From positions 2,948-66,947 of the IMG/VR virus record IMGVR_UViG_3300021979_000001: DNA of 64,000 nucleotides; one strand, 5' to 3'. The notes below the pieces were generated by a model. That model worked only from the letters and a program-made list of their open reading frames with translations. It was not told the origin of the DNA and did not search any database. The DNA is from a virus. Taxonomy: Duplodnaviria; Heunggongvirae; Uroviricota; Caudoviricetes. Positions 12,205 through 53,624 of the stretch are shown here, piece by piece (position 1 is the first letter of the stretch; each line of letters starts with the position of its first letter). Made by a program: the position numbers and the translations under genes.

Positions 12205-12270
12205 AGTAATTCGTTCAATCATGTATAAAATAACTAAATTATGCCTATTATAACTTAAATTGTTGCATCA

Positions 12271-12907: not shown

Positions 12908-12969
12908 GATAGGACCATCCCTGGTAATAAAAAATCACTAATATTTCAATTGGCAGTATCAATTAATCA

Positions 12970-13185: not shown

Positions 13186-13243
13186 GATCTGCTTCCTAGG
13201 TAATAAAATTGCTCATTCATGTTATACTTCAATTAATGCATCA

Positions 13244-13465
13244 TTAGTCAAAAAAACTAACGGAACCATTCCCATAGCCATAACTAGAACCATTGTCCAA
13301 ACCCTCGTTATAATCTTTTCCAGAACTATAACCATTTCCATAATCATAACCAAACCCGGCCCCATAGCCAAAACACCTGTAACTGGTATCTGCACCGGAA
13401 CCGAAACCAGAATCATTTATGGATAGATCAGACTCTTGATGATTTAATTTTACGAATATAGTCAT
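13244..13465 (-). CDS. Gly-X repeat peptide minigene
   Basis: Leader MTIFVKLNHQESDLSINDSG; 73 aa. Confidence 0.55.
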   Translation of the reverse strand: MTIFVKLNHQESDLSINDSGFGSGADTSYRCFGYGAGFGYDYGNGYSSGKDYNEGLDNGSSYGYGNGSVSFFD

Positions 13466-13517
13466 TATATGCCATATAAGGTAATAAGTTTAATAAATCA
13501 TATTATAATTGGTTGCA

Positions 13518-13745
13518 TCAATCACCATGACCCTTACCATCTCCAAAACCATACCCGAAACTATAACCAAACACCGAACCAATACCCTCGCCAACACCAA
13601 TACGGAAATCATTACCATCCCCATTCCCATAACCAAAACCATAACTTTCCCCAGTATAATAACCCGAACTCGGTTCATTACCCAACCACCCATCGGGTGT
13701 TAGGTCGGTGTTATAACAATAATACATTTTTATTGGCGTATTCAT
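13518..13745 (-). CDS. Gly-X repeat peptide minigene
   Basis: Uses Met8 of the track ORF; leader MNTPIKMYYCYNTDLTPDG; 75 aa. Confidence 0.55.
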   Translation of the reverse strand: MNTPIKMYYCYNTDLTPDGWLGNEPSSGYYTGESYGFGYGNGDGNDFRIGVGEGIGSVFGYSFGYGFGDGKGHGD

Positions 13746-13812
13746 AATTATTTTACCGAGTGACAAAAATAAGTTAACTAAATTGCATTACAACTTAGTG
13801 GTATCATTAATA

Positions 13813-14043
13813 TTACGTATCCCCATAATCATAACCAAATCCAGAACCCTTACCATAACCATTTCCCTGCTCGCCACCATACCCCGCACCAACCCCAGAA
13901 CCGTAACTATCTCCATTATTATAACCAGCACTGGCCCCCATCCCATAACTCAAACCATTACCAAAACCCAAACCAGACCCATCCCAGGAGACATCTTTTT
14001 TTAGATAGGGTTCGTGATAACACCAGTCGATAGCGGTATTCAT
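13813..14043 (-). CDS. Gly-X repeat peptide minigene
   Basis: Uses Met4 of the track ORF; leader MNTAIDWCYHEPYLKKD; 76 aa. Confidence 0.55.
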   Translation of the reverse strand: MNTAIDWCYHEPYLKKDVSWDGSGLGFGNGLSYGMGASAGYNNGDSYGSGVGAGYGGEQGNGYGKGSGFGYDYGDT

Positions 14044-14091
14044 AATTATCATCTCGGTAAAAAATGAAAGTTCAAATCACATATATTTCAA

Positions 14092-14287
14092 TTATTCGGA
14101 ATTACACCCCAGAGTGCCATACCTAAACCCAAAACCAAAACCATATTCATTCTCACCACCATATCCCTGACCGGAACACGAGCCATAACTATGACCATGA
14201 CTATGACCGGAACTATCGGTATGATCCGGTTCATCACCTGTTTCATTAGTGTGGTCATCGACAAAACAATAACATGTTTATATTCAT
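14092..14287 (-). pseudogene. Frameshifted Gly-X minigene
   Basis: ATG AAT ATA AAC, then a 1-nt shift before CYCFVDDHTNETGDEPD...GY core. The length of 196 nt is not a multiple of 3. Confidence 0.45.
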
Positions 14288-14313
14288 GTTATAATAAGAG
14301 CCATTTGAATAAT

Positions 14314-14550
14314 TTACGATATACGTCCATGACCATGACCATTGCCCGCCCCAAAACCATAATTATAACCATGCTCATTACCGGCGCTATCCCCAGCACC
14401 ATCCCCCATGCCATAACCTGCATGATACTCATTCCCATGACCCAACCCCGGACTATGATCATCCCCATAATCATCCCCGGCACCGGAACCAGAATTATCA
14501 GTTTTTAGATCGGGGTTATCGCAGTAATGAAACATAATCGATGGTTTCAT
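14314..14550 (-). CDS. Gly-X repeat peptide minigene
   Basis: Uses Met15 of the track ORF; leader MKPSIMFHYCDNPDLKTDNSG; 78 aa. Confidence 0.6.
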   Translation of the reverse strand: MKPSIMFHYCDNPDLKTDNSGSGAGDDYGDDHSPGLGHGNEYHAGYGMGDGAGDSAGNEHGYNYGFGAGNGHGHGRIS

Positions 14551-14581
14551 AATTGTTTCACCAAGTAAAAAATAAGTTAAA

Positions 14582-14824
14582 TTATTCACCATCTACGTTG
14601 CCATGACCATTGCCCGTCCCAAAACCATAACTATAACCATACCCATCATCCACACCATACCAGGCACCATCACCATTGCCATAACCCACGTCATATTGAT
14701 TCCCATAACCTTTCCCCGGACTATAATCATCCCCAGGATCATACCCGGCACATGAACCAGAGCCAGAACCATCGGTTATTGGATCGGGTTCATAGCAATA
14801 ATTAAATGCAATCGGTAGATTCAT
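14582..14824 (-). CDS. Gly-X repeat peptide minigene
   Basis: Leader MNLPIAFNYCYEPDPITDGSG; 80 aa. Confidence 0.6.
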   Translation of the reverse strand: MNLPIAFNYCYEPDPITDGSGSGSCAGYDPGDDYSPGKGYGNQYDVGYGNGDGAWYGVDDGYGYSYGFGTGNGHGNVDGE

Positions 14825-14877
14825 AATTGGTTCACCAATGAGAAAAAATAAGTTAAATCATTCACATTATATTTCAA

Positions 14878-15183
14878 TTATTCATAATTACGCCCAGTGC
14901 CATGCCCATCCCCATACCCAAAACCATCACCATCACTAGACACATAACCATCACCATCAACATAACCAATACCATTGCCAGCCCCATCACCATCACCATC
15001 AACATAACCAATACCATTGCCAGCCCCATCACCCATGCCATAACCTTCGTCATAATCATTCCCATAACCCTGCCCCGGATTATGATAATCCCCAGAATCA
15101 TAACCGGCACCGGAAACGGAACCATCACCATCACTTACTAGATCGGGGTTATTGCAATAATTAAATGTAATTGATGGTTTCAT
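14878..15183 (-). CDS. Gly-X repeat peptide minigene
   Basis: Leader MKPSITFNYCNNPDLVSDGDG; 101 aa. Confidence 0.6.
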   Translation of the reverse strand: MKPSITFNYCNNPDLVSDGDGSVSGAGYDSGDYHNPGQGYGNDYDEGYGMGDGAGNGIGYVDGDGDGAGNGIGYVDGDGYVSSDGDGFGYGDGHGTGRNYE

Positions 15184-15243
15184 AATTATTTCACTAAATG
15201 GTTAAACCACGTCAAATCGCACAGTTAGATTACAGGTATTGCA

Positions 15244-15444
15244 TCATTCACCCCTATTCCCATCACCACGACCATAACCCTCACCAGAAACAAAACCTTT
15301 ACCTGAACCATTCCCAAATCCATACACATTACCATAAGATATACCAAAACCATCCTCGGTGCCATGATCAGAGCCATGACCAAAACCATAAACATTGTTG
15401 GGTATATCATGGTTTTGGAAATATGATTCAATCGATATATTCAT
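15244..15444 (-). CDS. Gly-X repeat peptide minigene
   Basis: Uses Met6 of the track ORF; leader MNISIESYFQNHDIPNNVYG; 66 aa. Confidence 0.6.
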   Translation of the reverse strand: MNISIESYFQNHDIPNNVYGFGHGSDHGTEDGFGISYGNVYGFGNGSGKGFVSGEGYGRGDGNRGE

Positions 15445-15512
15445 AATTAAATCATTCATTTATTACATCATCAACTGTTACCAGGTCCATTGTCATACCC
15501 GCTTATCGGCAT

Positions 15513-15770
15513 CTATTCAGGTTCACCACTTGATCCATCCCAGTTTCCACGACTCGAACCATTACCAAATCCAAAAGCCGAACAATAACCATTTTTGTGA
15601 ATAAAAATATGTTCATACGTTTTGCCATCACCATAACCATAACCATAACCAGAACCATATCCATAACCATTACCAAATCCAAAAACCGAACCATTATCTG
15701 AAACAATTTCCGAAACAATTTCATTTGGGCTGCTATCATCGCAATATAATAAATTTATCAGTTCATACAT
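15513..15770 (-). CDS. Gly-X repeat peptide minigene (divergent)
   Basis: Leader MYELINLLYCDDSSPNE; 85 aa. Confidence 0.5.
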   Translation of the reverse strand: MYELINLLYCDDSSPNEIVSEIVSDNGSVFGFGNGYGYGSGYGYGYGDGKTYEHIFIHKNGYCSAFGFGNGSSRGNWDGSSGEPE

Positions 15771-15772
15771 AA

Positions 15773-15930
15773 TTAATACTGACCATCCATCGAACCCTCA
15801 CCAAACCCATGACCATATCCATAAATGTCACCAACATCATCACATTCGCCGCCCCATTTGTATGACAGTAGTTCGTTAGGACGTCATAATTAAAATAATA
15901 AAACCCGATTAATATATTAATGATACGGAC
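15773..15930 (-). pseudogene. Possible decayed Gly-X minigene
   Basis: A tail frame WGGECDDVGDIYGYGHGFGEGSMDGQY follows a stop. The leader-like INILIGFYYFNYD is in another frame and there is no ATG. Confidence 0.3.
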
Positions 15931-15989
15931 ACCCCAAGTGATAAAAAATGATTTAAATCACTACAACTATAATTCAACTGTTAAGTTCG

Positions 15990-16238
15990 TTAATCCGATC
16001 CATGACCGAAACCAGCACCATATCCAGTCCCAAAACCATCCCCATCACTAGAGCCATGACCATGACCATGACCATCTTTATAGTCTTGACCAGACCCGAC
16101 ACCATTGCCATCCCCATCACCTAGACCATAACCTTTGCCATCCCCTTTACCATAGCCTTCACCATCGCCATCATCATAACTGATTTCCTTTTGATCGGCG
16201 GTATTTATGTAAAAAGATAGGATTACGTATGTGTTCAT
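15990..16238 (-). CDS. Gly-X repeat peptide minigene
   Basis: Leader MNTYVILSFYINTADQKE; 82 aa. Confidence 0.55.
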   Translation of the reverse strand: MNTYVILSFYINTADQKEISYDDGDGEGYGKGDGKGYGLGDGDGNGVGSGQDYKDGHGHGHGSSDGDGFGTGYGAGFGHGSD

Positions 16239-16290
16239 AATATGTCACTCCAAACACAACAATAATAATTCAAAATACACATATTATATT

Positions 16291-16530
16291 TCAATAAGCA
16301 CCGTCACCATAACCATGCCCCCAATGCCCAGTCATATTTGTATCCCCAATATCAAACCCATTCCCATTCCCATTCCCTTTTCCAAAACCAAAACCATAAC
16401 CATCACTATCCCCATTATGATGGACATAACTAAGACTATAACCTTTCCAATTGTCATACCCATCATACCCATCACTATCATCATATTCACAGATATGGAC
16501 ATAATAATACAATATTATGTTAATGTGCAT
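16291..16530 (-). CDS. Gly-X repeat peptide minigene (divergent)
   Basis: Uses Met6 of the track ORF; leader MHINIILYYYVHICEYDDSDG; 79 aa. Confidence 0.5.
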   Translation of the reverse strand: MHINIILYYYVHICEYDDSDGYDGYDNWKGYSLSYVHHNGDSDGYGFGFGKGNGNGNGFDIGDTNMTGHWGHGYGDGAY

Positions 16531-16578
16531 TACGAGTTCCCACATGTAAATAACATAATCAAACAGTTAATATAATAT

Positions 16579-16839
16579 CTATTTCATGGTCATATAAAAA
16601 TGATCTGTTTCATTACCATCATTGGCACCAGCCCCATGTCCAACACCGTTACTATCACCTAAATCATCACCCGAAGCAGAATCATCCCCCATACCAGAAT
16701 TATTTGTATGTCCAGAACCACTTCCTCTACCATATCCAAACACATGTCCTTTTTTATGTCCATGCGCAAACCCACGACCATAGTGATACCAATTACTATA
16801 TACATCGACACAATAAATTACTTTTATGGGCAATTTCAT
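16579..16839 (-). CDS. Gly-X repeat peptide minigene (divergent)
   Basis: Uses Met4 of the track ORF; leader MKLPIKVIYCVDVYSNW; 86 aa. Confidence 0.5.
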   Translation of the reverse strand: MKLPIKVIYCVDVYSNWYHYGRGFAHGHKKGHVFGYGRGSGSGHTNNSGMGDDSASGDDLGDSNGVGHGAGANDGNETDHFYMTMK

Positions 16840-16901
16840 TATTAACATCCAATCAATTAAATAGATAAACCGTAATAATTATAATTATTTCTTACACTAA
16901 T

Positions 16902-17180
16902 TCACCATGATTTTCTGACCCATTTATGCGAGCCGTAACCAATATTATAACTTGACCCATATCCATTTCCCTGTCCATCAGCATAACCATAACCATGCCC
17001 TGCCCCTGAAAGATAACTAACCCCTAACGTTGGGCTTGTATCCCCAACATATGCAGAGCCATCCCCCTGCCCGTCACCTTTAACAGAACCATCCTCATAC
17101 TCCGAACCAGTTCTAGTCCCGGAAAAGTTGTTATAAAGATCGGCATTTCGGTAAAAACACGATTTTATGGTGGGTTTCAT
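16902..17180 (-). CDS. Gly-X repeat peptide minigene (divergent)
   Basis: Uses Met4 of the track ORF; leader MKPTIKSCFYRNADLYNN; 92 aa. Confidence 0.5.
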   Translation of the reverse strand: MKPTIKSCFYRNADLYNNFSGTRTGSEYEDGSVKGDGQGDGSAYVGDTSPTLGVSYLSGAGHGYGYADGQGNGYGSSYNIGYGSHKWVRKSW

Positions 17181-17238
17181 ACTTATCACACTTGCAAAAA
17201 GTTGGATTAGTCATAAAATAAACACAATGGTGGCTGCA

Positions 17239-17484
17239 TTACCCGAAACTATCACCGAAATAAAAACCGTAAGCGTGACCACATCCAAGACCCTCACAAT
17301 TACCAGATTTAGCATTTAATCCATAATCCTGACCATGACCGTAAACGGCCCAATATCGAATTACGTAACTTATTTCATAATGAGAACCACTTCCCTGCCC
17401 CTCGCCATAACCACCCCCATTACGAATTAAAGAACCATTACCCGAACGTTTTATGTAATATAAATCTATTGGTATATTTGCCAT
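17239..17484 (-). CDS. Gly-X repeat peptide minigene (divergent)
   Basis: Leader MANIPIDLYYIKRSGNG; 81 aa. Confidence 0.5.
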   Translation of the reverse strand: MANIPIDLYYIKRSGNGSLIRNGGGYGEGQGSGSHYEISYVIRYWAVYGHGQDYGLNAKSGNCEGLGCGHAYGFYFGDSFG

Positions 17485-17533
17485 TTGACTTCGCCAAGTA
17501 AAAATGGATATATGGAGATAATCATTTCATTGT

Positions 17534-17728
17534 TCACTCTGCCATAGCACCATGCCCATAGCCATAACCACCATCAAACACGTTCCCATACCCATTACTA
17601 TCCCCATCCTCATACCCATCGCTAGAGTCAGACCCGTATCCATACCCGGTTCCATCACTATTGCCATATCGATAGCTATTATTATGTTGATCAACTGTGT
17701 AATATAGTAGTGTTATAGGTAGTTTCAT
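17534..17728 (-). CDS. Gly-X repeat peptide minigene
   Basis: Leader MKLPITLLYYTVDQHNN; 64 aa. Confidence 0.55.
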   Translation of the reverse strand: MKLPITLLYYTVDQHNNSYRYGNSDGTGYGYGSDSSDGYEDGDSNGYGNVFDGGYGYGHGAMAE

Positions 17729-17826
17729 TGTTTTATTACCAAGTTGGGTTCAACCGAAATAATACTGGTAAGTATATCAATCATACTCATATATCATTTA
17801 ATAATATAAGGGATAATGTAGTTTGG

Positions 17827-18213
17827 TTAGTCCTGTCCTAACGCATCTGACGAAAACGGATGTGAATTATCCATATGCTGACTGCATAACCATTCAATTC
17901 CAGTAATGGAGTAAACACCATTAACTGCGGGCGCGCCGCAATAATGACATTTTTTGTGTGCCATTTCGGACGTTCCGTCGTGTTTAGCACGTTTTTTACT
18001 GAACTTGGACTTTGTAAAATGCCCCGCTTTCATCTGGGTAACGGATTTACCCATTGCTCGGTAATTTGCCCCATTAATTCCTGTTGTTTTGGTTTGGTGT
18101 TTTGCTTTACACCCTTTACAACAATACTGCGCCCATCCTCGATTGCGATCTGCAATTCTTGCTTCAAAATCAGTTTTACACCATAAGCAAGAAAATGTTC
18201 CAGTGGCCGCCAT
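17827..18213 (-). CDS. Cys-rich zinc-ribbon-like small protein embedded in the array
   Basis: GGAG SD 9 nt upstream of the ATG. Contains CLWC, CCKGC and CHYC...C..H motifs; 128 aa and basic. Confidence 0.6.
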   Translation of the reverse strand: MAATGTFSCLWCKTDFEARIADRNRGWAQYCCKGCKAKHQTKTTGINGANYRAMGKSVTQMKAGHFTKSKFSKKRAKHDGTSEMAHKKCHYCGAPAVNGVYSITGIEWLCSQHMDNSHPFSSDALGQD

Positions 18214-18348
18214 AGGTCAAATCTCCATAATGGGGGGTAAAAATCATAAACAATTGTAGTATTTTTGGTTATATAAAGCAAAGATTAAAATTATTGTTTT
18301 TTGATGATTGGAATGGCATATAACACGGTGTCATCAATAACTTATTTC

Positions 18349-18594
18349 TCAATCAACCAAGTTTGCAATACCAAAACCATAACCGTTACTATCGCCTTCG
18401 GTATTACCTGGACCATCCCCATAACCTTCCCCATTACTTACACTATTACTAAATCCAAAACCATGCCCTGAACCATTACCAAAACTACGACCACAACCAC
18501 CCCCGTATTCTGATATAGCAATATCACCTACGGAATCATCATCACCTGGATAAAAATCGACGATATGATATGATAGTATGACAGTTTTCATCAT
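18349..18594 (-). CDS. Gly-X repeat peptide minigene (first in transcription order, divergent)
   Basis: Leader MMKTVILSYHIVDFYPGDDD; 81 aa. Confidence 0.5.
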   Translation of the reverse strand: MMKTVILSYHIVDFYPGDDDSVGDIAISEYGGGCGRSFGNGSGHGFGFSNSVSNGEGYGDGPGNTEGDSNGYGFGIANLVD

Positions 18595-21578: not shown

Positions 21579-22667
21579 TTACTTGAACTGATCACCAAAC
21601 GGATCAAAATCTTTTCCGCATGTTTTGGCACATACTTTTAATTTACCTGCGGCACAACTTGGTTTTGACCATGTGCTTTCGATGTAATTGAACATTGGCC
21701 CGGCTAAAATCTTTTCAACTGAAACCATGATACCATTGATTGCATCTTTGCCACCAACATGCTCGATTATTTTCCAAAGAGGCGATGATTTTGGTTCCAA
21801 ATACCATACATAAAGCTGGTTGGCGGTCCAACAGCATGGAAATACCAAACCTTCTGCCGATATATATATTGACCCTTCGGTATCAGTTTTGCAGGTGATC
21901 GGGGTATTATCCAAATAATTTTGCAAGCTACCATGCTTCGCAATTAATGATTGTTCCTGTTGCAAAGCATTGTTTTGGTATTGCGGATCAATTGGTTTTT
22001 CCAGGACGTGTTTTACGGTCCCATCCTTACCCATAACATCTTGCGAATCTTTGCCTTTTAGTTGGTTATTTGAGAAGAACCGCCCGGTTTTTTTAACCTG
22101 GAAGTGAATAAAACCCATTTCTGCGGCAAGGGTGCGGGCATCGTCCACCTGGTGTTCATTGTGTTTGAAAACAATATAATCCCAAATTGCGCGGCCACCA
22201 GATTGAATAAATGATTCCACATTACGCATAATAACATCGAACCGGCATCCTTGACGATACAGATGATTTGTATCATCAAGACCATCAATACCAAACCGAA
22301 CACTGTCACCTTTTTTTGATAACAGTTTACCGAGTTCTCCCCACCATTCGGGATTTTTCGCGCTACCATTGGTATTCATACCAAGGGTAATATTTGGGTT
22401 CATTTCTCGGAAATATTTCATTACGTCCAAGGTATCTTGGGCTGCAATTGGGTCGCCAAAATTACCACACATGTAAATTCGATTAAGACTTAGTAAAAAT
22501 TCCTTTGTGAAGATTTTTTTACAATCATCTAACGTCAATTCGGTAATCGGCAGGGATGGGTTTACCCATGTTCCAAGGACATTTCGTCCACATTGCGGGC
22601 ATGATGCATTGCATCTGGATGTGATTTCCAAATGCACAGTTTTAATACGAGAATATTCAAATGCCAT
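21579..22667 (-). CDS. Radical SAM enzyme with SPASM/twitch-like C-terminal Cys cluster (copy 1)
   Basis: CNASCPQC (CX3CX2C) at residues 19-26. Also CKTDTEGSIYISAEGLVFPC (CX13GX4C) and CAAGKLKVCAKTC. Confidence 0.85.
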   Translation of the reverse strand: MAFEYSRIKTVHLEITSRCNASCPQCGRNVLGTWVNPSLPITELTLDDCKKIFTKEFLLSLNRIYMCGNFGDPIAAQDTLDVMKYFREMNPNITLGMNTNGSAKNPEWWGELGKLLSKKGDSVRFGIDGLDDTNHLYRQGCRFDVIMRNVESFIQSGGRAIWDYIVFKHNEHQVDDARTLAAEMGFIHFQVKKTGRFFSNNQLKGKDSQDVMGKDGTVKHVLEKPIDPQYQNNALQQEQSLIAKHGSLQNYLDNTPITCKTDTEGSIYISAEGLVFPCCWTANQLYVWYLEPKSSPLWKIIEHVGGKDAINGIMVSVEKILAGPMFNYIESTWSKPSCAAGKLKVCAKTCGKDFDPFGDQFK

Positions 22668-27048: not shown

Positions 27049-27771
27049 ATGAATACTTTATCGATAAATGAACTAAGAAATGATTTAAAAGAATCAACAA
27101 ATAATATGTCCTGGACCGTAAGTAATATTATCACCGATGATGGTCTTTTACTACCACCAACGTCCGATTCTAAAGAAATATCGAAGTTATTAGAGCGACA
27201 AGCGGAAATACATTTGAGCAAGATTGCGGATAAGTATGGGTATGTTTTTGAAACAAGTAGTAGACAAAATACATACCCGGACGGAACATTAACAAAATAT
27301 GATGCTGGCAGAATACTCCATAGAATAGCAATAGATGCAAAAAGCACGTTTGAAAAACCATCCATGAATTTGACACTTGGTAGCTACACATCATTTTTAT
27401 TGAACGACAATAAAAGCATTACATATCCATATTCGACATATGATGACCATTGGGTTATGATTTTTACATATCGTCGAACAGAGGATGGTTCTTATGATTC
27501 AGTCAGATGGTATTTAACTGAAAAAGCCCGCATCACCGGGTTGGTGGCGGGTAGCGGCAACACAAAAAATATAGGGAGTGTTCGTTTCAGAAAAGTAGAT
27601 GATTTAACATCAATTAATGGGCCATTTGCCCGTTTCAAAAACATGAAAGGGGCTTCTGATCACTATTGGCGCAACTATGATCGTTTGCGCAAAGAAATCA
27701 AAAGCCCTGGCGATTTGATAATGCACCCGGAATTTGTTCAATTCACAAATCTGGAACGTAGTAATTGTTGA
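27049..27771 (+). CDS. EcoRV-family type II restriction endonuclease (PD-(D/E)XK)
   Basis: Matches EcoRV as I recall it along its length: KIADKYGY, QNTYPDGTL, IAIDAKST, LTLGSYTSF, ITYPYSTYDDHWVMIFTYRR, AGSGNTKNIGSV, HYWRNYDR. Confidence 0.75.
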   Translation: MNTLSINELRNDLKESTNNMSWTVSNIITDDGLLLPPTSDSKEISKLLERQAEIHLSKIADKYGYVFETSSRQNTYPDGTLTKYDAGRILHRIAIDAKSTFEKPSMNLTLGSYTSFLLNDNKSITYPYSTYDDHWVMIFTYRRTEDGSYDSVRWYLTEKARITGLVAGSGNTKNIGSVRFRKVDDLTSINGPFARFKNMKGASDHYWRNYDRLRKEIKSPGDLIMHPEFVQFTNLERSNC

Positions 27772-28828
27772 TTTTGTGTTGTAAAGCTGGAATTTTTGAT
27801 GATATTCCTTCGGTGGAAAGAATAATCAATCGATCTGCGGTCACGTAACTTTCGCACTTTGCATTGGTAAATGTCCCTAATTCGTTCCCATATCCGATTA
27901 GGATACCGCAATTAAGATTTAAAATATTGTTTGCGGTTTGTTTCCAGTCAATAACCGTGCGGTTAATGGCAACAGAGATCACACTATCTCCTTTGGCCGT
28001 GAATAAATCTTCTATGATTTCTTCGGTTCCAGGCGCGACCATCGCCCGAACCGCCATTGCTGGATAACTGCGCATGGGACGAATAACCGATGTTGCACCG
28101 GCAGCAATGATACGTTTTCGATTATGATCTGATACGCATTCAGCGATGATGGGAACGGATGGGTTTTGTTCACGAACGTGGTATACCGTGGAGAACGTGA
28201 TTGAGTCATCATCATTGCTGCCACTAGGTGCGATAACAAAGATCGCACGGCATTTGGTCAAACCGACTTGTTCGGACATGCCAGGACTGTTGATGTTTCC
28301 ATGATTGAAAATTGTTCGATTGTCAAAATCGCACAGGTTGGTCGTCCATTGGTCAGTGAGGATATTAATTGCGATTTTATTATATTCTGGAATATCACGA
28401 ATTTCCCGGATGAATTCCTGAAAATATTTTACCGCATTTGGTCCATTCGGTGACCCGATAACTAAAATGTGATCGTTCAATTTCCAGTTCCATTTCCCGG
28501 TTTTTATTGCATTTGATCGAAATTCGCGCATATCTTGATAAATGTCAATCATTCTAGCAAAAATTGCCAATGCTGGAATAAACAATACCATAACGCTTAT
28601 TATTCGACCGATAGGGGTTGATGCGGACAAATCCCCATATCCAATTGTAGTGATACTGGTTGAAGCCAACCATAACGCATCACCGATGGTCATATTTTCA
28701 TATATGACCATCGTTGGAACAAATATCCCGATACATAGTAATAAAATTGCACCTAATTCAAAGAACTCGCGTTTTGTCGTCTTGTTTCGAATTAGTTGAC
28801 GATTGCGCCAAAAAAACAAAAAGTGCAT
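27743..28828 (-). CDS. 2TM potassium channel with C-terminal RCK/TrkA-N-like domain
   Basis: Selectivity filter TSITTIGYGD lies between two TM helices. It is followed by ILVIGSPNGPNAVKYFQEF, which looks Rossmann-like. Confidence 0.8.
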   Translation of the reverse strand: MHFLFFWRNRQLIRNKTTKREFFELGAILLLCIGIFVPTMVIYENMTIGDALWLASTSITTIGYGDLSASTPIGRIISVMVLFIPALAIFARMIDIYQDMREFRSNAIKTGKWNWKLNDHILVIGSPNGPNAVKYFQEFIREIRDIPEYNKIAINILTDQWTTNLCDFDNRTIFNHGNINSPGMSEQVGLTKCRAIFVIAPSGSNDDDSITFSTVYHVREQNPSVPIIAECVSDHNRKRIIAAGATSVIRPMRSYPAMAVRAMVAPGTEEIIEDLFTAKGDSVISVAINRTVIDWKQTANNILNLNCGILIGYGNELGTFTNAKCESYVTADRLIILSTEGISSKIPALQHKINNYYVPDL

Positions 28829-31289: not shown

Positions 31290-32687
31290 TTATTCGCCGG
31301 TGAATGGTTTCGACGAGTGACGGGTTGTCAGCTTATCGAGTGCCCCAAGGCTGGTTACAATGTCCAACGACGTTGGTGCCGCAACGGATGAACCACCACC
31401 ATAATAAATATCCGGCATCGACACTGTAATGTCTTTTAGATTTGGATAAATAATTTGGGCGGTATCGCGTGCCAATTCTGCCATATAAATATCTTTGGCA
31501 TCTTGTAACGCCTTGTATTTGGCACGGGCAACGTCGGCTTCGGCCAGGCCAGTTTCACGAATAGATTCTGCCTTGAATTTTGCGGCCTGGGCCGTCGCAT
31601 TTTGAATATCTTTATCCGCAACTGCCATTTCAAGTTCCTTCTGTTTTTTCAGAAGGGCAATTTGCTTTTCCTTGTTTTGTCGAACTTTTTCCAGTTCCGC
31701 AGTTTGCCGTTCCACTTCCACCTGCTGAACAGCCCGGATAATAGCCAATTCTTTTTCTTTTTGTGCTTTTTGCACATCCCGCGCCTTCTCAATTTCCATA
31801 TTGAGAGCGATGGTTTTTGCTTCGGTGCGAGCGGTATCTTGTTCCTGCAACGAAGTGATACGTTTTGCGACCAACAGCTTTTTATCCCGCAGCAACGTTG
31901 TCAACTGGGGATCGGGTTCGGGACGACCGATAGTAACCTGCCGAACTGAAATCCCATACAGTTCAAGCGGGTTTGAAATCCGCAATTCGGCCCCGGCAGC
32001 ATTTGTGGTGATCACGTTTTTCCAAACTAGTTGGTTTCGGCTTTCCAACTTGTTTGCATCGGAATTCTCCGAATTAACGGCAGCAAAGTCGGTTTGCTGG
32101 ACTTCAACTTGTTTCCGTGTGGTTTGATACAAACCATAGGTTAACTGATTTTCAAGTTTTACCTTGAAATCGTTTAGGCCCCCTTGGAAAAATTCTTCCC
32201 CGGTATATTGCGTCCCTGTGACCACCGTGACGTTCTTGGCATTTTTAACCATCAAAGAATCAATGAGGTTGTCTTTGCCACGAAACTCCGAATGCATCAG
32301 AAGAATTTTCTGAACATCAGATGACAATTTAAACCGGAAGGTGGCCGGAATATCTGCAATATAAGTATCAGCAAATTGCACTGATACTGGGTCAAGCTGC
32401 CGCGTTGACGACGCTTCTTCACTGGCATCTTGATTGCCGAATGATATGACCACTGCTTGTGGATATTCGTAGATGGTAGTAAAGAATGGGATTTTAGCAT
32501 GAACCCCAGGCTCGGTATATACGATCAACCGGCCCAAAAGGGTATCTTGCAGGACATAAGTGATGCCTGCTGCGGTGGTGAAAAATGATGAAAACCCGAT
32601 GATTAAGGCAAAAATGGCAAAAATGCCGCCAATAATCCACCGTTTGATAGATTGTAAAATCATGTCATGTTCTTCTGTTTGGTCCAT
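31290..32687 (-). CDS. SPFH/band-7 (prohibitin/flotillin-like) membrane protein
   Basis: N-terminal TM segment, PGVHAKIPFFTTIYEYP, and a long charged coiled-coil region. Confidence 0.6.
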   Translation of the reverse strand: MDQTEEHDMILQSIKRWIIGGIFAIFALIIGFSSFFTTAAGITYVLQDTLLGRLIVYTEPGVHAKIPFFTTIYEYPQAVVISFGNQDASEEASSTRQLDPVSVQFADTYIADIPATFRFKLSSDVQKILLMHSEFRGKDNLIDSLMVKNAKNVTVVTGTQYTGEEFFQGGLNDFKVKLENQLTYGLYQTTRKQVEVQQTDFAAVNSENSDANKLESRNQLVWKNVITTNAAGAELRISNPLELYGISVRQVTIGRPEPDPQLTTLLRDKKLLVAKRITSLQEQDTARTEAKTIALNMEIEKARDVQKAQKEKELAIIRAVQQVEVERQTAELEKVRQNKEKQIALLKKQKELEMAVADKDIQNATAQAAKFKAESIRETGLAEADVARAKYKALQDAKDIYMAELARDTAQIIYPNLKDITVSMPDIYYGGGSSVAAPTSLDIVTSLGALDKLTTRHSSKPFTGE

Positions 32688-43900: not shown

Positions 43901-43954
43901 AGCTAAATAACTGTCCCAAATAATAGAAATAGAATGGTAATTAAGGATATATCT

Positions 43955-45673
43955 ATGCAAGTTAAGAAACGAAATGGTTCAATGGAGCCAGTAAATCTCG
44001 ATAAAATTGTTAAATCCATTGAAGCGGTAGCAACGGGCCTGGACGGGGTTGATGTTTTCCGAATCGCGCAGAAAACCGTTGGTGGACTAGTTCATGGTGT
44101 TACCACACGTGAACTCGATATGTTTTCAATTCGAAACGCGGCTGGGTTGATTATCGAAGACCCCGTATATTCCAAAGTCGCGGCCAGAATCATGCATAAC
44201 GTCATTTCCAAAGAAGTATCAGGACAAGATATTCAATCTTTTTCACAATCAATCAGTCTTGGTTACGAAATGGGGTTGATTGATGAACAAACATATAATC
44301 TGGTTATGAATAATAAACGCAAGTTAAATGCGTCTATTAAAACCGAACGTAGTGATTTATTTGAATTTCACGGAATCATCACTGTTTATGATAGATACCT
44401 GTTGAAGCATCGTGATTTGATGGCTGGCTCTGGGACGGATCGTCGTCGGGCAGTAATTGAAACCCCGCAATATTTCTTCATGCGTGTCGCTTGTGGTTTG
44501 GCGAATGATGCGAAAGAAGCAGTTGAACTGTATAATCTGGTATCATCGCTTGAATATATGACATCAACACCGACATTGTTTAATTCCGGGACATCACATA
44601 CGCAAATGTCGTCCTGCTATCTGCTTGATAGCCCGAACGATGATTTGCAGGATATTTATAAACGATATTCGGATATTGCCTCCCTATCAAAATTTGCGGG
44701 TGGCATTGGTGTGTCTGCTAGTCGCATTCGGTCTAAAGGTTCCCCCATTAAGGGCACAAACGGTCGTTCAAACGGTATCATTCCATGGTTACACACCCTG
44801 TCTGGATCAGTTGGGGCAGTCAACCAGGGCGGCAAGCGCAAAGGTGCTGCATGTGTTTATCTTGAACCACACCATGCTGATGTAATGCAGTTTTTGGAAT
44901 TGCGTGACCAGACGGGTGAAAAAGAACGTCGTGCCTATAACCTTAACATTGCAAATTGGGTATCTGATTTGTTTATGTCACGCGTCAAGAATGATGAAAT
45001 TTGGTCATTGTTTGATCCGGCTGATGTTCCAGAACTGGTTGATCTTTATGGTGATGAATATACCAAACGGTATCTTGAACTTGAAGAACAGGGAAAATTT
45101 GTTGAACAGATTAGCGCACGAAAAATTTATGCGCGAATGATGCGCACCCTGGCAGAAACCGGTAATGGTTGGATGTGCTTTAAAGATACATCCAATAATC
45201 GCGGGAATCAGGTGGGCGAGGGACGCTCGATCAAGCTGTCAAACCTTTGTTTTGCCCCAGATACCATCATTCATGCAAAACTGGGTGATAAGGTAATGGA
45301 CATTGAAATCAAGGCATTAAGTGATTATTTCAGCGTTGGTATTCCGGTTCAGGTTTGGTCGTTCAACGAAGAAACACACGAAATGGAATGGAAAAATGTG
45401 GTGAATGCCGGATTGACCAATCCTGATGCGGAATTGATGGAAATCGAAACACCATCCGGTAAAATAATTCGTTGCACGGAAGATCACCCCATGCTGACTG
45501 AACGCGGGTGGGTTAATGCTGGCGATCTAACCGAAGACGACTCTCTTGTTGAAGTTGATACCACGCAAGAAGTGCATAAATTCGAACATTGGAATAAAGA
45601 TAAACACATGGTAACCGAAATTATCATGGATCATCTTTATTCCAAAAATAAAAAAACCAGCGTCATTATGTAA
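43955..45673 (+). CDS. nrdA: Ribonucleotide reductase class Ia alpha subunit, N-terminal fragment fused to an N-intein
   Basis: GGGIGVSASRIRSKGSPIKGTNGRSNG, then ...KLSNL followed by CFAPDT (intein block A) and TEDH (block B). A stop lies at 45671-45673. The alternative start is at 43934. Confidence 0.85.
   Translation: MQVKKRNGSMEPVNLDKIVKSIEAVATGLDGVDVFRIAQKTVGGLVHGVTTRELDMFSIRNAAGLIIEDPVYSKVAARIMHNVISKEVSGQDIQSFSQSISLGYEMGLIDEQTYNLVMNNKRKLNASIKTERSDLFEFHGIITVYDRYLLKHRDLMAGSGTDRRRAVIETPQYFFMRVACGLANDAKEAVELYNLVSSLEYMTSTPTLFNSGTSHTQMSSCYLLDSPNDDLQDIYKRYSDIASLSKFAGGIGVSASRIRSKGSPIKGTNGRSNGIIPWLHTLSGSVGAVNQGGKRKGAACVYLEPHHADVMQFLELRDQTGEKERRAYNLNIANWVSDLFMSRVKNDEIWSLFDPADVPELVDLYGDEYTKRYLELEEQGKFVEQISARKIYARMMRTLAETGNGWMCFKDTSNNRGNQVGEGRSIKLSNLCFAPDTIIHAKLGDKVMDIEIKALSDYFSVGIPVQVWSFNEETHEMEWKNVVNAGLTNPDAELMEIETPSGKIIRCTEDHPMLTERGWVNAGDLTEDDSLVEVDTTQEVHKFEHWNKDKHMVTEIIMDHLYSKNKKTSVIM
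45248..45670 (+). other. Split intein, N-terminal half (IntN, 141 aa including about 40 aa of tail)
   Basis: It begins at the Cys codon directly after SNL. The extein motif SNLCTEI is interrupted at this point. Confidence 0.75.
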
Positions 45674-45817
45674 GTATTGTGGTAAAAATCCGGTAGGTCG
45701 TAATAAAACATCATATCGAAAATGTTGCGACCTGCCGGAATTTAAATGAAATATACAACTATGAAGTTAAATGTGCAAATGATGTTTCATTTGAACATAT
45801 ATGAAAGGCTAAAATAA

Positions 45818-45919
45818 ATGGCATTAAAAATTCGTCGCACCGGAGAAAGAAGTCCGGTATATGATTTGCATGTTGCAGATAATCACACGTTCGTAGCGGA
45901 TGGTCATATTGTCCATAAT
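45818..45919 (+). other. Split intein, C-terminal half (IntC, 34 aa)
   Basis: MALKIRRTGERSPVYDLHVADNHTFVADGHIVHN followed by the +1 Cys (CTEILEV). It resembles DnaE-type IntC in length and in its VYD..V...H.F.A..G.I..N pattern. Confidence 0.75.
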
Positions 45920-47092
45920 TGCACCGAAATTTTAGAAGTCACATCATCTGGTGACAAGTTAAAAATGAGTCGTGAACAGATTGCGGCCTTAACCAAAGAT
46001 GACATGATTAAGGACAATATCCGTGTTGTTGGCTTTGACCATAAGACTGATCAATTTGAAGTCATTAAGGGAATGGAAACTGCGGTTTGTAATCTTGGCT
46101 CGATTAACCTGTCTCGTGGTTATGTCAAGGCTGGCAAACTCGACAAAGTAAAGTTGCGAAAGAATGTTGCAATTGCGGTTAAATATCTTGATCGCGTTAT
46201 TGATCGTAATTTTTATCCAATCCCGGAAGCAGAATCATCGAATGATCGGTGGCGTCCAATTGGACTTGGATTGATGGGTCTGGCGGATTTCTTCTTTCAG
46301 ATTGGATTACCATTTGGCAGTGATGAAGCAATTAAATTGTCTGGTGAGATTCAGGAAGAAATTTATTATCAGGCATTGGTGACATCTAACGAATTGGCAA
46401 AAGAACATGGCCCACATCGTGATTTCGATTTAACACGGGCGGCCAAAGGAGAATTACAATTCGATTTGGCGGGCGTAGAAGTGGCCGACAAAGAGCGTTG
46501 GGATGATCTTAAGGCATCCATCATGGAACACGGCTTACGCAACTCCTTGGTCATTGCAATCGCTCCCACGGCCACTATTAGTCATATCGTTGGGGCCGAA
46601 GAATGCATTGAACCAATCAAGTTTAATTTGATGAAACGCGAAACCTTGTCCGGTGAATTTATTTCGATCAATAAGTATTTGGTTCGTGATCTGAAAAAAC
46701 TTGGGCTATGGGATGAACGCATGCGATCATTGCTAACACGAGAAAATGGTTCGGTCCAAAACTTGCCGGTTCCTGATGAAATCAAAGAACTCTATAAAAC
46801 AGTTTGGGAAATATCACAGAAAGACATCATCGCCCATGCTGTTGCTCGTGGTGCCTTTATTGATCAAAGCCAGTCTCTCAATCTGTTCCTGGACTTGACC
46901 AAACATGCACCGGATAAGCGCATCGGTGTTGTATCAAAACTTTATATGCATGCATGGGAAATGGGTTGCAAAACAACTTATTATTTGCGCACACGATCAG
47001 GAAGTCAGATTGAAAAGGTGACGATTAACAGTCAGTCATCTGCCCCTGCGGCGGCACCGGAAAATCCAGATATTTGTGAAAGCTGCACCTAA
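45818..47092 (+). CDS. nrdA: C-intein fused to the ribonucleotide reductase class Ia alpha subunit, C-terminal fragment
   Basis: Has its own GAAAGG SD and ATG. CTEILEV completes SNLCTEI, and the C-terminal CESC tail is present. Confidence 0.85.
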   Translation: MALKIRRTGERSPVYDLHVADNHTFVADGHIVHNCTEILEVTSSGDKLKMSREQIAALTKDDMIKDNIRVVGFDHKTDQFEVIKGMETAVCNLGSINLSRGYVKAGKLDKVKLRKNVAIAVKYLDRVIDRNFYPIPEAESSNDRWRPIGLGLMGLADFFFQIGLPFGSDEAIKLSGEIQEEIYYQALVTSNELAKEHGPHRDFDLTRAAKGELQFDLAGVEVADKERWDDLKASIMEHGLRNSLVIAIAPTATISHIVGAEECIEPIKFNLMKRETLSGEFISINKYLVRDLKKLGLWDERMRSLLTRENGSVQNLPVPDEIKELYKTVWEISQKDIIAHAVARGAFIDQSQSLNLFLDLTKHAPDKRIGVVSKLYMHAWEMGCKTTYYLRTRSGSQIEKVTINSQSSAPAAAPENPDICESCT

Positions 47093-47099: not shown

Positions 47100-47134
47100 A
47101 AAGGTGGTCGCCATTGTGCGACCACCTTTGTTTT
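47100..47134 (+). terminator. Rho-independent terminator
   Basis: AAAGGTGGTCGC-CATTGT-GCGACCACCTTT followed by GTTTT. Confidence 0.75.
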
Positions 47135-52613: not shown

Positions 52614-53624
52614 ATGTCATTATTAGACCCTGGCTTCGACCTTACCCTGCGACCAATGAAATACCCGAAATTTTTTGATGCATTTCGTGATGCACAGAAT
52701 AATAACTGGTCCGTTCAGGAAATTTCATTTGCAACGGATTTCACCGACCTTCAAGAAAAACTTACCCCTGCTGAACGGCATGTAGTTTCCCGGTTGGTTG
52801 CATTTTTTGCTACTGGCGATAATATCGTTGCAAACAACGCCGCATTGACCTTGTATCGCCATGTCAATTCACCCGAAGCCAGATTATATTATTCCCGGCA
52901 GATTTTCGAAGAATCGTTGCATGTCGAATTTTACCTTACCCTATTGGACAATTATATCCCCGATCCCGAAGAACGGGCGGAAATGTTCCGGGCAATTGAA
53001 ACCATCCCATCTGTTAAGAAAAAAGCAGATTTTGCAATGAAATGGATGGATCAAATGGATTCAATTGATCGGTTGGAAACAAATGATCAAAAAAAGACAT
53101 TTTTGATGAATTTGTTGGCATTTGCCACCTGCATTGAAGGACTATTTTTCTTTGCGGCATTTGCGTATGTATATTATCTTCGAGATCGTGGTTTGTTACA
53201 TGGCTTGGCATCGGGGACCAACTGGGTGTTTCGCGATGAATCATGGCATATGCGATTTGCATTCGATGTTATTGACGTAGTTCGCAAAGAAAACCCGGAA
53301 TTGTGGGATGACGATCTTGAAACCCGCATTTATGAAATGCTGGATGAAGCAATCGATTGTGAAATGCAATTTGCCGACGATGTTTTGACCATGGGTGTGA
53401 TTGGCCTTTCAAAAGATGATATGCGCGAATATCTGCAATATACTGCCGATAATCATTTGCGTCGTTTGAACATGAAACCATGCTATGACTCTAAATGTCC
53501 ATTTGATTTCATGCTAAAACAAGACGTGCAAGCATTAACCAGCTTTTTCGAACGCACAGTATCAGAATATTCTGTAGGTATTGGCGGAAATGTTGATTTT
53601 GATGATGATGACGTTGATTTTTAA
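52614..53624 (+). CDS. nrdB: Ribonucleotide reductase class Ia beta subunit
   Basis: GGAGA SD; ferritin-like EESLHVEFY, ATCIEGLFFFAAFAY, RDESWHMRF; acidic C-terminal tail. Confidence 0.9.
   Translation: MSLLDPGFDLTLRPMKYPKFFDAFRDAQNNNWSVQEISFATDFTDLQEKLTPAERHVVSRLVAFFATGDNIVANNAALTLYRHVNSPEARLYYSRQIFEESLHVEFYLTLLDNYIPDPEERAEMFRAIETIPSVKKKADFAMKWMDQMDSIDRLETNDQKKTFLMNLLAFATCIEGLFFFAAFAYVYYLRDRGLLHGLASGTNWVFRDESWHMRFAFDVIDVVRKENPELWDDDLETRIYEMLDEAIDCEMQFADDVLTMGVIGLSKDDMREYLQYTADNHLRRLNMKPCYDSKCPFDFMLKQDVQALTSFFERTVSEYSVGIGGNVDFDDDDVDF

Follow-up and report, generated by a model that had tools for sequence, protein, structure and literature searches.

How can an intact NrdA be made when its gene is broken into two open reading frames (ORFs) directly ahead of the active-site cysteine, and how did the break arise? 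This question is raised by a locus in the virus record IMGVR_UViG_3300021979_000001 (Caudoviricetes). The window, i.e. the whole stretch of DNA analysed, comprises 64,000 nucleotides (positions 2,948 to 66,947 of the record), and all coordinates below are window positions. Our reading, which we hold with a probability of about 0.8, is that a very large phage here has a fractured nrdA, whose halves would be joined by a naturally split intein and whose spacer carries the fossil of a deleted endonuclease gene.

The broken nrdA gene and its split intein

The anatomy given in the preliminary description was reproduced at every coordinate (Table 1). The motif SNLCTEI is interrupted after SNL, and the insertion begins with CFAPDT, contains TEDH as block B and runs for 141 aa to the stop at 45671; after a gap of 144 nt, a second ORF starts with its own ATG (45818), 9 nt behind the Shine-Dalgarno sequence GAAAGG (45803-45808). 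The N-extein ends with ...SIKLSNL at 45247 and matched the Pfam models ATP-cone, Ribonuc_red_lgN and Ribonuc_red_lgC. The codon of the first intein cysteine (Cys1) occupies 45248-45250. The +1 Cys codon (45920-45922) is followed by TEILEV, and this Cys doubles as the thiyl-radical residue in the motif NLC-TE. The two parts of the intein are thus encoded by different ORFs, the first closed by a genuine stop and the second opened by a translation start of its own, as in a naturally split intein.

Table 1. Positions of the features of the nrdA locus and of nrdB in the window.
Feature	Position	Strand	Basis
ORF-N, 579 aa: nrdA N-extein and N-intein	43934-45673	+	ORF reading
nrdA N-extein, 438 aa (ATP-cone, all-alpha domain, first half of barrel), end ...KLSNL	43934..45247	+	Pfam, NCBIfam NrdA models
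N-intein HINT core, ~105 aa: Cys1, block A CFAPDT, block B T77-E-D-H80, acidic last strand GDLTEDDSLVEV	45248..45562	+	TIGR01445, PDB 8UBS
36-aa non-HINT tail of the N-intein ORF (DTTQEVHKFEHWNKDKHMVTEIIMDHLYSKNKKTSVIM) and TAA stop (45671-45673)	45563..45673	+	clade comparison
Hairpin H1, 13-bp perfect outer stem and 8-bp inner stem, in tail-coding DNA	45589..45645	+	-22.1 kcal/mol, z = -6.2
Start-less fossil, N-terminal zinc finger of free-standing endonuclease: KKPASLCKYCGKNPVGRNKTSYRKCCDLPE	45651..45740	+	+1 frame relative to nrdA; 30 aa
Gap between the halves, 144 nt	45674-45817	+	sequence
Hairpin H2 (CCGGTAGGTCG/CGACCTGCCGG), 17-bp stem with G-U pairs, inside the fossil, no U-tract after it	45689..45739	+	-27.8 kcal/mol, z = -6.2
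Weak hairpin H3 (45768-45801), Shine-Dalgarno GAAAGG (45803-45808), spacer to ORF-C start	45768..45817	+	H3 z = -1.8 only
ORF-C, 424 aa: C-intein and nrdA C-extein	45818-47092	+	ORF reading
C-intein, 34 aa: MALKIRRTGERSPVYDLHVADNHTFVADGHIVHN	45818..45919	+	TIGR01443; basic first strand MALKIRRTGER, blocks F/G, terminal His-Asn
nrdA C-extein, 390 aa, from +1 Cys to ...CESCT	45920..47092	+	Pfam Ribonuc_red_lgC 8.6e-102
Terminator-like hairpin, 12 bp, 7 G-C pairs, then T-rich stretch GTTTTATTGG	47100..47129	+	directly 3' of ORF-C
nrdB, RNR small subunit, partner of spliced NrdA	52614..53624	+	Pfam Ribonuc_red_sm 1.9e-81

Both ORFs are in the same reading frame, and six in-frame stops (the TAA and five more) lie across the gap. 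A contiguous mini-intein with one nonsense mutation was ruled out by these six stops and by the homology of the first stop to that of the related locus L003. A contig of a second ENA assembly (L005) was identical across 7661 bp, the stop and gap included, so the split is no artefact of one assembly; since L005 may come from the same sample, this identity excludes an assembler artefact and is compatible with a population-level variant. On the + strand of the gap, neither a sigma-70-like promoter nor a terminator was called. The hairpin directly behind ORF-C is the sole strong + strand terminator-like site 3' of either half, in keeping with a single transcript that spans the two ORFs.

The identity of the intein was supported by curated models. 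The N-half scored 34.6 bits against the cut-off of 24.5 of NCBIfam intein_Nterm (TIGR01445), and the C-half 29.7 against 15.6 for intein_Cterm (TIGR01443); with both halves above their cut-offs, the match is not due to chance. The N-intein alone also exceeded the cut-off of Pfam Intein_splicing (38.7 versus 35.8). The 34-aa C-intein with blocks F and G and a terminal HN before the +1 Cys, as first described, was borne out by the sequence and by TIGR01443. All of the splicing residues are present: C1, T77 and H80 of block B (T-x-x-H), H33-N34 of the C-intein and C+1. Alignment to known split inteins had been proposed earlier; for NrdJ-1, the structure 8UBS was the best PDB match of the N-half (E=2e-15, ~50% identity over 82 residues, N-intein residues 21-102). 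The end of the N-intein core (GDLTEDDSLVEVD) is acidic and the start of the C-intein (MALKIRRTGER) is basic, a pattern that has been reported for NrdA-2 and NrdJ-1 (Dassa 2009, PMC2677866). A single-sequence AlphaFold2 model of the fused intein had a pLDDT of 35; the assembled halves probably adopt the HINT fold, as suggested by their homology to 8UBS. Together with the recurrence of the same-site split in relatives, these results favor the earlier proposal of a naturally split intein.

Removing the insert restores a colinear NrdA at a conserved site. In-silico splicing gave a protein of 828 aa (roughly 93 kDa; junction ...KLSNLCTEILEV / ...KLSNL-CTEILEVTSSGDK), which aligned without gaps across LSNL|CTEILEV with the 823-826-aa intein-less homologues P0005, P0006 and P0012. 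Its N-extein is 74-78% identical to intein-less NrdA proteins of 822-826 aa encoded on contigs of 400-640 kb, and the identical NrdA protein also occurs on a 457-kb contig; the host of the gene is a very large phage.

From this anatomy, the homology, the fossil described below and the arrangements in relatives, we infer the following course. Both halves are most likely co-transcribed and translated separately. Through its acidic end, the N-intein core would associate with the basic start of the C-intein to form one HINT domain. Trans-splicing would then proceed by an N-S acyl shift at Cys1, acyl transfer to the +1 Cys, cyclisation of the terminal Asn and an S-N shift. The predicted product is the 828-aa NrdA, in which the active-site loop N-L-C-T-E would be restored with the +1 Cys as the thiyl-radical cysteine.

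Relics of an endonuclease gene between the halves

The insertion in ORF-N had been regarded as a 141-aa N-intein. This length is right for the portion of the ORF, but the HINT core takes up only ~105 aa of it, and residues 106-141 form a non-HINT tail. Among the 150 best database relatives, 62 stop at the end of the HINT core (45562). The tail has no counterpart in NrdJ-1, in the Campylobacter phage CPt10 or in seven other split loci, where tails are 1-9 aa long, and was found only in the present clade (29-37 aa). Such a tail is unusual for this intein family. It is kept in L004 and L007 despite the loss of every endonuclease trace.

The closest relatives, L003 and L006, carry an intact endonuclease gene between the intein halves. 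The ORF (303 and 307 aa, respectively) overlaps both halves, and its 3' end in L003 overlaps the downstream half by 10 nt. A PDB profile search revealed a Bax1-like PD-(D/E)xK nuclease domain in it, and the matches to PHROG homing endonucleases were weak. Pfam gave no match for endonucleases of the L003/L006 type. Membership of the lost endonuclease in the Vsr-like family of Dassa 2009 found no support: Pfam gave no match, and the PDB profile matched the Bax1-type PD-(D/E)xK domain instead.

As stated in the preliminary description, no homing endonuclease ORF is found between the halves of the present locus; the + strand of the gap holds no ORF of at least 30 aa. The gap was also said to contain only hairpins. 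The hairpin named there is real and corresponds to H2 with its 17-bp stem, but the gap also carries what can be recognized as the fossil of an endonuclease gene. The fossil can be aligned with residues 3-34 of the inter-half ORF of L003 (303 aa), with 14 of 31 residues identical and CxxCG kept. When a profile of five endonucleases was compared with the full six-frame translation of the window (2318 pieces), the fossil came top at E=0.011 and the runner-up had E=6.2; the match is short (31 aa) with a window-wide significance of only E=0.011, and the expected position adds weight to it. Aligned globally at the DNA level, the gap and the endonuclease region of L003 gave a noisy, uninformative result, and the fossil was judged by protein-level and profile comparisons instead. 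For a 3' endonuclease fossil in 45746-45817, the same five-endonuclease profile returned non-significant collinear matches only. These results suggest that the gap is the relic of a deleted free-standing PD-(D/E)xK endonuclease gene; the endonuclease would be absent because it was deleted, leaving the fossil in the gap.

The stop codon and H1 also point to the endonuclease gene. The TAA stop of ORF-N falls inside the TGT|AAG codons of the relic, and the same is true for L003. The endonuclease once started in the 3' arm of H1, at a codon that now reads ATT (45639-45641). In L006, the start codons of the endonuclease are intact and lie within a hairpin (1810-1865) that has the same codon position as H1 and arms of different sequence; in L003, the hairpin at the position of H1 is weaker. 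Hairpins at the 5' ends or start codons of such endonuclease genes have been reported (Dassa 2009, PMC2677866), and H1 fits this pattern. Both the stop that closes the N-ORF and the hairpin in the tail DNA thus appear to derive from the 5' end of the former endonuclease gene. H1 still has a perfect 13-bp stem.

H2 folds with -27.8 kcal/mol on the + strand versus -20.4 on the - strand, a bias towards the sense strand, and the equivalent region of L003 does not fold. Its arm motif is not enriched within the window, and a repeated genomic element was rejected. The Rfam matches in the gap were sub-threshold, hairpin-like and attributable to chance, and a group I intron or other known RNA was also rejected for this spacer of only 144 nt.

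Other relatives show further arrangements. L004 has a spacer of 21 nt (22 nt between the annotated genes), with a mini-ORF of 19 codons in which the first residues of the endonuclease, MPTR, are preserved. The two ORFs of L007-9 share 8 nt. The lineages of L004 and L007-9 have lost the endonuclease independently. L010/P0030 has only a non-catalytic tail resembling the N-intein and a leader resembling the C-intein, and the splicing residues are gone. A DNA similarity search of 50,697 phage records gave no match, and no close relative was found with N-intein peptide patterns in IMG/VR or with a degenerate C-intein DNA pattern in IMG/VR and metagenomes; 80 further, more distant loci were found by a C-intein-profile scan of metagenomes.

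The history of the locus can be proposed in three steps. At first, a mini-intein would have occupied the site where inteins are commonest in RNR, and a free-standing endonuclease gene would have invaded it; the product of this gene probably had a zinc finger, a NUMOD3-like motif and a PD-(D/E)xK nuclease. From the 5' end of the gene, the N-ORF would have gained its 36-aa tail, its stop and the hairpin that covers the endonuclease start codon, and the C-ORF would owe its start to the gene's 3' end. Later, about 720 nt of the endonuclease gene would have been deleted here, leaving the 144-nt spacer with the start-less fossil.

It is conceivable, though doubtful, that the relics H1, H2 and the tail have been co-opted and are not neutral debris. 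The hairpins might then tune mRNA processing or the relative translation of the halves, the tail might modulate association or the timing of splicing, and the clade would document the whole path from an intein, through an invaded split intein and an endonuclease-free split intein, to a non-splicing, permanently split enzyme of the L010 type.

Constraint on the intein and alternatives to splicing

Compared with L003, pN was 0.21 for the N-intein core, 0.07 for the C-intein, 0.18-0.20 for the exteins and 0.45 for the tail. Synonymous sites are saturated in this comparison, so that dN/dS is not calculable and the pN values alone were compared. The C-intein is 91% identical to that of L003, and the tail shows 34% amino acid identity. 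The N-intein core and the C-intein therefore seem to be as constrained as the exteins, and the tail does not. This conservation of the intein suggests that it is active in trans-splicing.

An unlikely alternative is that the halves assemble non-covalently without splicing and that the intein fragments serve solely as tags for their association, a role that has been suggested for the tails of Aeh1 NrdA-a/NrdA-b. A split NrdA can indeed be functional without splicing (Crona 2011, PMC3045599), and L010/P0030 shows that such an Aeh1-like non-splicing state is present in this clade. However, Cys1, TEDH and HN are all kept at the present locus, and the same residues are gone in the non-splicing relatives. 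The intein is also conserved as much as the enzyme itself, and an unspliced complex would hold 175 extra residues in the active-site loop N-L-C-T-E.

In our view, it is very unlikely that the stop and gap inactivated nrdA and that the locus is a pseudogene with an intein in decay. A similar locus of the Campylobacter phage CPt10 has been called a pseudogene (PMC3653736), and the block B histidine is replaced in L004 (TEAQ). Against decay, both ORFs are full length, the RNR catalytic motifs are complete, ORF-C has its own Shine-Dalgarno sequence and ATG, nrdB is intact, and the split architecture is kept across lineages with saturated synonymous sites.

An assembly or sequencing artefact, or ribosomal bypass or readthrough of the gap giving a contiguous intein, can practically be dismissed: although the N-ORF ends with AUG-UAA, the C-ORF begins with AUG in the same frame and a strong hairpin after the stop superficially resembles the bypass of T4 gene 60, six in-frame stops lie in 144 nt, the second assembly is identical, the spacers of relatives (21 nt, -8 nt and 870 nt) have differing end codons and thus no conserved take-off/landing pairing, and known bypasses cover tens of bases (Dassa 2009, PMC2677866).

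Relation to known split genes and implications

Dassa et al. 2009 (PMC2677866) described fractured NrdA genes at exactly this insertion site, endonuclease overlaps, and gp41-7, which is without endonuclease. The insertion point of the present locus is the same as that of NrdA-1 to NrdA-7. Like them, it has NrdA as its host protein, a site directly N-terminal to the thiyl-radical Cys, adjacent halves on the same strand, an acidic N half and a basic C half, and a phage or metagenomic setting; NrdA-2 was compared by its published description. NrdA-1 to NrdA-7 differ by an intact GIY-YIG or Vsr-like endonuclease and N-parts of 88-105 aa, whereas the present locus has only an endonuclease fossil, apparently of a zinc finger and PD-(D/E)xK type, and a 36-aa tail on its N-ORF. 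The 5' hairpin and 3' overlap of the endonuclease gene in fractured genes are represented by H1 here, the overlap in L003 and the start-enclosing hairpin in L006.

With no free-standing endonuclease gene between its halves, the locus corresponds to the endonuclease-less variant gp41-7. The latter likewise has adjacent split-intein halves and no endonuclease gene, and it retains a hairpin that in sister loci stands ahead of the endonuclease, but its host gene is the gp41 helicase of T4-like cyanophages and a coding endonuclease fossil was not reported there (Dassa 2009, PMC2677866).

NrdJ-1 (PDB 8UBS/9OMB) is the closest solved structure and has the same block order. [quoted passage not shown] The +1 extein residue of NrdJ-1 is Ser. 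NrdJ-1 is known as a fast natural trans-splicing intein (PMC7090010).

The nrdA of the cultured Campylobacter phages CPt10 and vB_CcoM-IBB_35 has a split intein at the same site (MTNL|C...; ...VHN|CE) with a 40% identical N-intein. It differs by two intervening ORFs of 113 and 172 aa, neither of which has a nuclease signature, a 2-aa tail and a further intein downstream, and the locus is annotated as a pseudogene. In Aeh1 NrdA-a/NrdA-b (Friedrich 2007; Crona 2011, PMC3045599), a mobile endonuclease also divides nrdA close to the active site, and the tails come from the invading DNA. However, mobE is still present there, and the halves have no intein motifs, do not splice and assemble non-covalently through tails acting as interaction domains, whereas the present halves match intein models and retain the catalytic residues. 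The cyanobacterial DnaE split intein is a natural trans-splicing HINT domain of similar size (~100 + 35 aa), but its halves lie at distant loci (step IV of the gene-breaking model) in another host protein, and it is cellular rather than of phage origin.

The locus represents step III, endonuclease loss, of the gene-breaking model of Dassa et al. 2009, an endonuclease-less state already known from gp41-7. Compared with the preliminary description, the division into HINT core and tail, the fossil in the gap and the probable endonuclease origin of the stop and tail hairpin are new. The locus offers a well-documented natural case of endonuclease loss on the path from a contiguous intein through a split intein to a permanently broken gene, and goes beyond the single earlier example gp41-7 by the coding fossil and the former regulatory hairpin that the lost endonuclease appears to have left. 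With sister lineages that have an intact endonuclease and two other independent deletions, the order of events becomes reconstructable and testable. The NrdJ-1-like Cys+1 split intein pair is a candidate for an orthogonal protein-ligation tool. For the annotation of large phages, our results serve as a warning that a two-piece nrdA is probably functional and not a pseudogene.

Sequence of the split nrdA gene and its intein

In the window, nrdA is carried by two co-oriented ORFs that share a reading frame, ORF-N and ORF-C. The preliminary description, which had placed an apparent split intein in nrdA at 45248-45922, was borne out at these coordinates by the listed ORFs and by the raw sequence. 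From 45248, directly past SNL, ORF-N reads CFAPDTIIH...RCTEDHPMLTERGWVNAGDLTEDDSLVEV... as far as a TAA stop at 45671-45673. ORF-C begins 144 nt after ORF-N and 9 nt past a GAAAGG, with MALKIRRTGERSPVYDLHVADNHTFVADGHIVHN followed by CTEILEV.... A contiguous mini-intein with a single nonsense mutation was excluded, because the gap carries six in-frame stops.

Coordinates of features at the split nrdA locus and at related loci
Feature	Location	Strand	Details
ORF-N	43934-45673	+	579 aa; NrdA ATP-cone, all-alpha domain and first half of barrel (Pfam), up to ...SIKLSNL
Hairpin H1	45589-45645		in tail-coding DNA; perfect 13-bp stem and 8-bp inner stem; -22.1 kcal/mol, z = -6.2
Hairpin H2	45689-45739		inside endonuclease fossil; sense strand -27.8 vs -20.4 kcal/mol
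ORF-C	45818-47092	+	424 aa; remainder of barrel, C-terminal end CESCT
Terminator-like hairpin, strong	47100-47129		after ORF-C
nrdB	5.5 kb downstream of split nrdA		
Endonuclease between intein halves	L003 5688-6599; L006 1837-2760		also P0122-P0124
L004 mini-ORF	6795-6854		19 codons, MPTRRTLLPPGKHFEGTPP and stop; original endonuclease start (MPTR...) kept; ATGA overlap with IntC start
L010 nrdA	4001-6761		P0030 (also P0039, P0042, P0054, P0057, P0119); split 8 residues upstream of intein site, 121-nt gap
L001 nrdA	NC_027996.1 117773-121840		annotated as disrupted pseudogene

The N- and C-intein halves (IntN and IntC) exceeded the curated cut-offs of the NCBIfam models for the N-terminal (34.6 versus 24.5 bits) and C-terminal (29.7 versus 15.6 bits) splicing regions. 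With fused IntN and IntC as query, the closest solved structure was the NrdJ-1 split intein 8UBS (E=2e-15), followed by other mini-inteins. About half of the residues were identical to 8UBS over IntN positions 21-102. When 1.84 billion representative proteins were scanned exhaustively by HMMER with the 141-aa IntN as query, 1449 matched, and 62 of the best 150 terminate no more than 8 residues from the equivalent of IntN residue about 100-105. This result shows that natural N-halves are common in this intein family and that the HINT core comprises about 105 aa. The insertion is indeed 141 aa long, as first described, but its last 36 aa (DTTQEVHKFEHWNKDKHMVTEIIMDHLYSKNKKTSVIM) are an appendage.

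The splicing residues are complete: Cys1, block B Thr77 and His80, the terminal His-Asn of IntC and the +1 Cys. When the exteins (the flanking NrdA parts) were joined in silico, the resulting 828-aa NrdA aligned gap-free across LSNL/CTEILEV with intein-less NrdA of 823-826 aa (73-75% identity). This +1 Cys, the thiyl-radical cysteine of the N-L-C-x-E loop, marks the most frequent site of RNR inteins, which is also occupied in the fractured NrdA-1 to NrdA-7 loci (PMC2677866). At the sequence level, every feature of a naturally split intein is present.

Most close homologues of the ORF-N protein lack an intein; these NrdA proteins measure about 822 aa, share 76-78% identity with it and lie on contigs of 400-640 kb, so the window comes from a very large phage. 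The exact ORF-N protein occurs on 4 contigs (the longest 457 kb), and tblastn also matched 'uncultured phage' records of 636-642 kb. Elsewhere in the window, the minus strand at 48-18594 carries a tandem array of 47 or more small paralogues, each 67-107 aa long, with one gene per roughly 300 bp. Their products open with a roughly 20-aa leader (e.g. MNTSIELYY.., MVTIYNLYYSIPLITN.., MKPYINQSFYIN..) and continue in repeats of Gly-X dipeptides (G 29.5%, Y 11%, D 10%, S 8%, N 8%, H 5%), and the array accounts for hexamer repeats and for a GC skew between -0.4 and -0.5. The genes may code for precursor peptides, or for low-complexity or structural proteins of a very large phage, and a gene for a radical SAM enzyme (21579-22667) lies about 3 kb away. 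A potassium-channel-like protein with Ion_trans_2 pore and RCK/TrkA-N domains is encoded at 27743-28828 (minus strand), near an SPFH/Band 7 protein at 31290-32687.

An endonuclease remnant across the ORF-N stop

Comparison of related contigs showed nrdA split at the same site in several relatives. In two of them, L003 (ORF-N 73% identical to that of the window) and L006, an ORF of 303/307 aa lies between the halves and overlaps both. Its product has a CxxC...C..C zinc finger at the N-terminus, a NUMOD3-like basic stretch and, at the C-terminus, the nuclease motif ...PDF...E-I-K-G. PHROG homing-endonuclease matches were weak, no Pfam family was found, and in the PDB the family profile matched a Bax1-type PD-(D/E)xK nuclease domain (E=0.0018). 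This family, with 4 clusters in 5.8 billion proteins, is rare and may be an undescribed family of free-standing homing endonucleases.

In the +1 frame relative to nrdA, the window reads KKPASLCKYCGKNPVGRNKTSYRKCCDLPE across the ORF-N stop, which aligns with residues 3-34 of the L003 endonuclease. Of the window's 2318 stop-to-stop pieces, all compared with a profile of five endonucleases, this start-less one was the sole best match (E=0.011; runner-up E=6.2). The gap holds no endonuclease ORF, as the preliminary description stated, but it does not contain only hairpins. DNA alignment placed ATT at 45639-45641 opposite the L003 endonuclease ATG, and the ORF-N stop codon within the TGT/AAG (Cys-Lys) zinc-finger codons in window and L003 alike. 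The homologous stop and the aligned fossil indicate that the split is ancestral to both. The alignment also indicates that the stop codon was contributed by the invading element, and about 720 nt of endonuclease would have been deleted later in the window lineage.

The 3' arm of hairpin H1 contains the former endonuclease start. A hairpin in L006 starts at the same Trp-Asn codons, has different arm sequences and encloses intact endonuclease start codons; that of L003 at the equivalent place is weaker. Hairpins were described at endonuclease 5' ends in 15 of 16 fractured loci, and one is kept in the endonuclease-less gp41-7 (PMC2677866), just as H1 is here. Because H1 covers the former start, as in L006 and the published loci, the 36-aa tail is best read as ORF-N continuing through the former 5' leader of the endonuclease. 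The tail protein is poorly conserved relative to L003 (34% identity; pN 0.45, compared with 0.18-0.20 in the exteins, 0.21 in the IntN core and 0.07 in IntC, with synonymous sites saturated), and tails of the other split loci in the family have only 1-9 aa. H2, the hairpin reported first, has no equivalent in L003 and no U-tract. No sigma-70-like promoter and no terminator-like site were called on the + strand of the gap, and a strong terminator-like hairpin follows only ORF-C, which fits a putative single transcript for both halves.

Trans-splicing and its alternatives

Protein trans-splicing of the two NrdA halves is the best-supported reading of the sequence. The last strand of the IntN core (GDLTEDDSLVEVD) is acidic and the first strand of IntC (MALKIRRTGER) basic, a complementary charge pattern also described for NrdA-2 and NrdJ-1. 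These strands would pair to assemble the HINT domain, which would cut itself out and join the exteins. Both intein parts are under purifying selection equal to that on the enzyme, which argues that splicing is needed for NrdA function.

Non-covalent assembly of the halves is a weaker explanation. In L010-type relatives, the N-half ends in an IntN-like segment (YFEIELEDGRVISKLMTDSVMTSNGIKIVADLTEDDDIVE) that lacks both Cys1 and TxxH. The C-half, which carries IHLSNL, begins with a leader resembling IntC (MAKIKKLTRKTS, then IIHLSNLCTEILEV) that lacks His-Asn. These segments look like non-splicing, intein-derived association tails, an origin speculated for the Aeh1 NrdA-a/b tails (Crona et al. 2011, PMC3045599). 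Splicing appears abandoned there, the catalytic residues being gone too, whereas the window keeps all of them. Pseudogenisation of nrdA is likewise weaker. The nrdA of Campylobacter phage CPt10 (L001) has been discussed as a disrupted pseudogene (PMC3653736); it holds an intact split intein at the same site (MTNL/CLAGDT...; MIKITKKTEKIPVYDIEVKDNHNFFANGLCVHN/CE), 40% identical to the window IntN, and no nuclease signatures were found in the two ORFs between its halves. This nrdA is probably fractured but functional.

An artefactual split is weaker as well, since L005, an ENA contig from a separate assembly, shows no difference from the window along 7661 bp, stop and gap included. The end of ORF-N (AUG-UAA, 45668-45673), the in-frame AUG of ORF-C (45818-45820) and a strong hairpin right after the stop superficially resemble a translational bypass site. 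This resemblance was judged coincidental, in view of the six in-frame stops and of the lack of conservation in relatives.

In four related large-phage NrdA proteins of 953-958 aa (P0022, P0026, P0035, P0036), the same SNL/C site bears another mini-intein, contiguous and about 135 aa long (CVAPETMILTD...GILAGN/C). Distinct intein lineages have thus settled at this site within a single clade.

Loss of the endonuclease gene in the family

In L004, 21 nt separate the halves (22 nt by the annotated gene ends). The mini-ORF in this spacer is what is left of the endonuclease, and its ATGA overlap suggests that translational coupling is retained. The block B histidine of the L004 intein is substituted (TEAQ), and a second, large intein follows VNQ in the same NrdA. 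In L007-9, there is an 8-nt overlap between the two ORFs. The C-half of L007 (5661-8006) also bears a LAGLIDADG-containing intein, so split and contiguous inteins coexist in one nrdA. Comparison of these loci indicates that the endonuclease-less state originated on at least three occasions within the clade, with differing deletion end-points. Among 80 metagenome loci retrieved with IntC patterns, all seven split loci of the family (L013, L024, L026, L031, L053, L076, L079) have an ORF of 246-579 aa between the halves, so the endonuclease-less state is the minority.

Apart from the endonuclease, the window locus has every feature of the fractured genes of Dassa 2009. It corresponds exactly to step III of that model, 'loss of the endonuclease gene', of which gp41-7 was the sole example so far (PMC2677866). 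In conclusion, an endonuclease-less fractured gene was already known; what is added here is the fossil, the kept hairpin and a set of sister loci, which let the order of events be set out.
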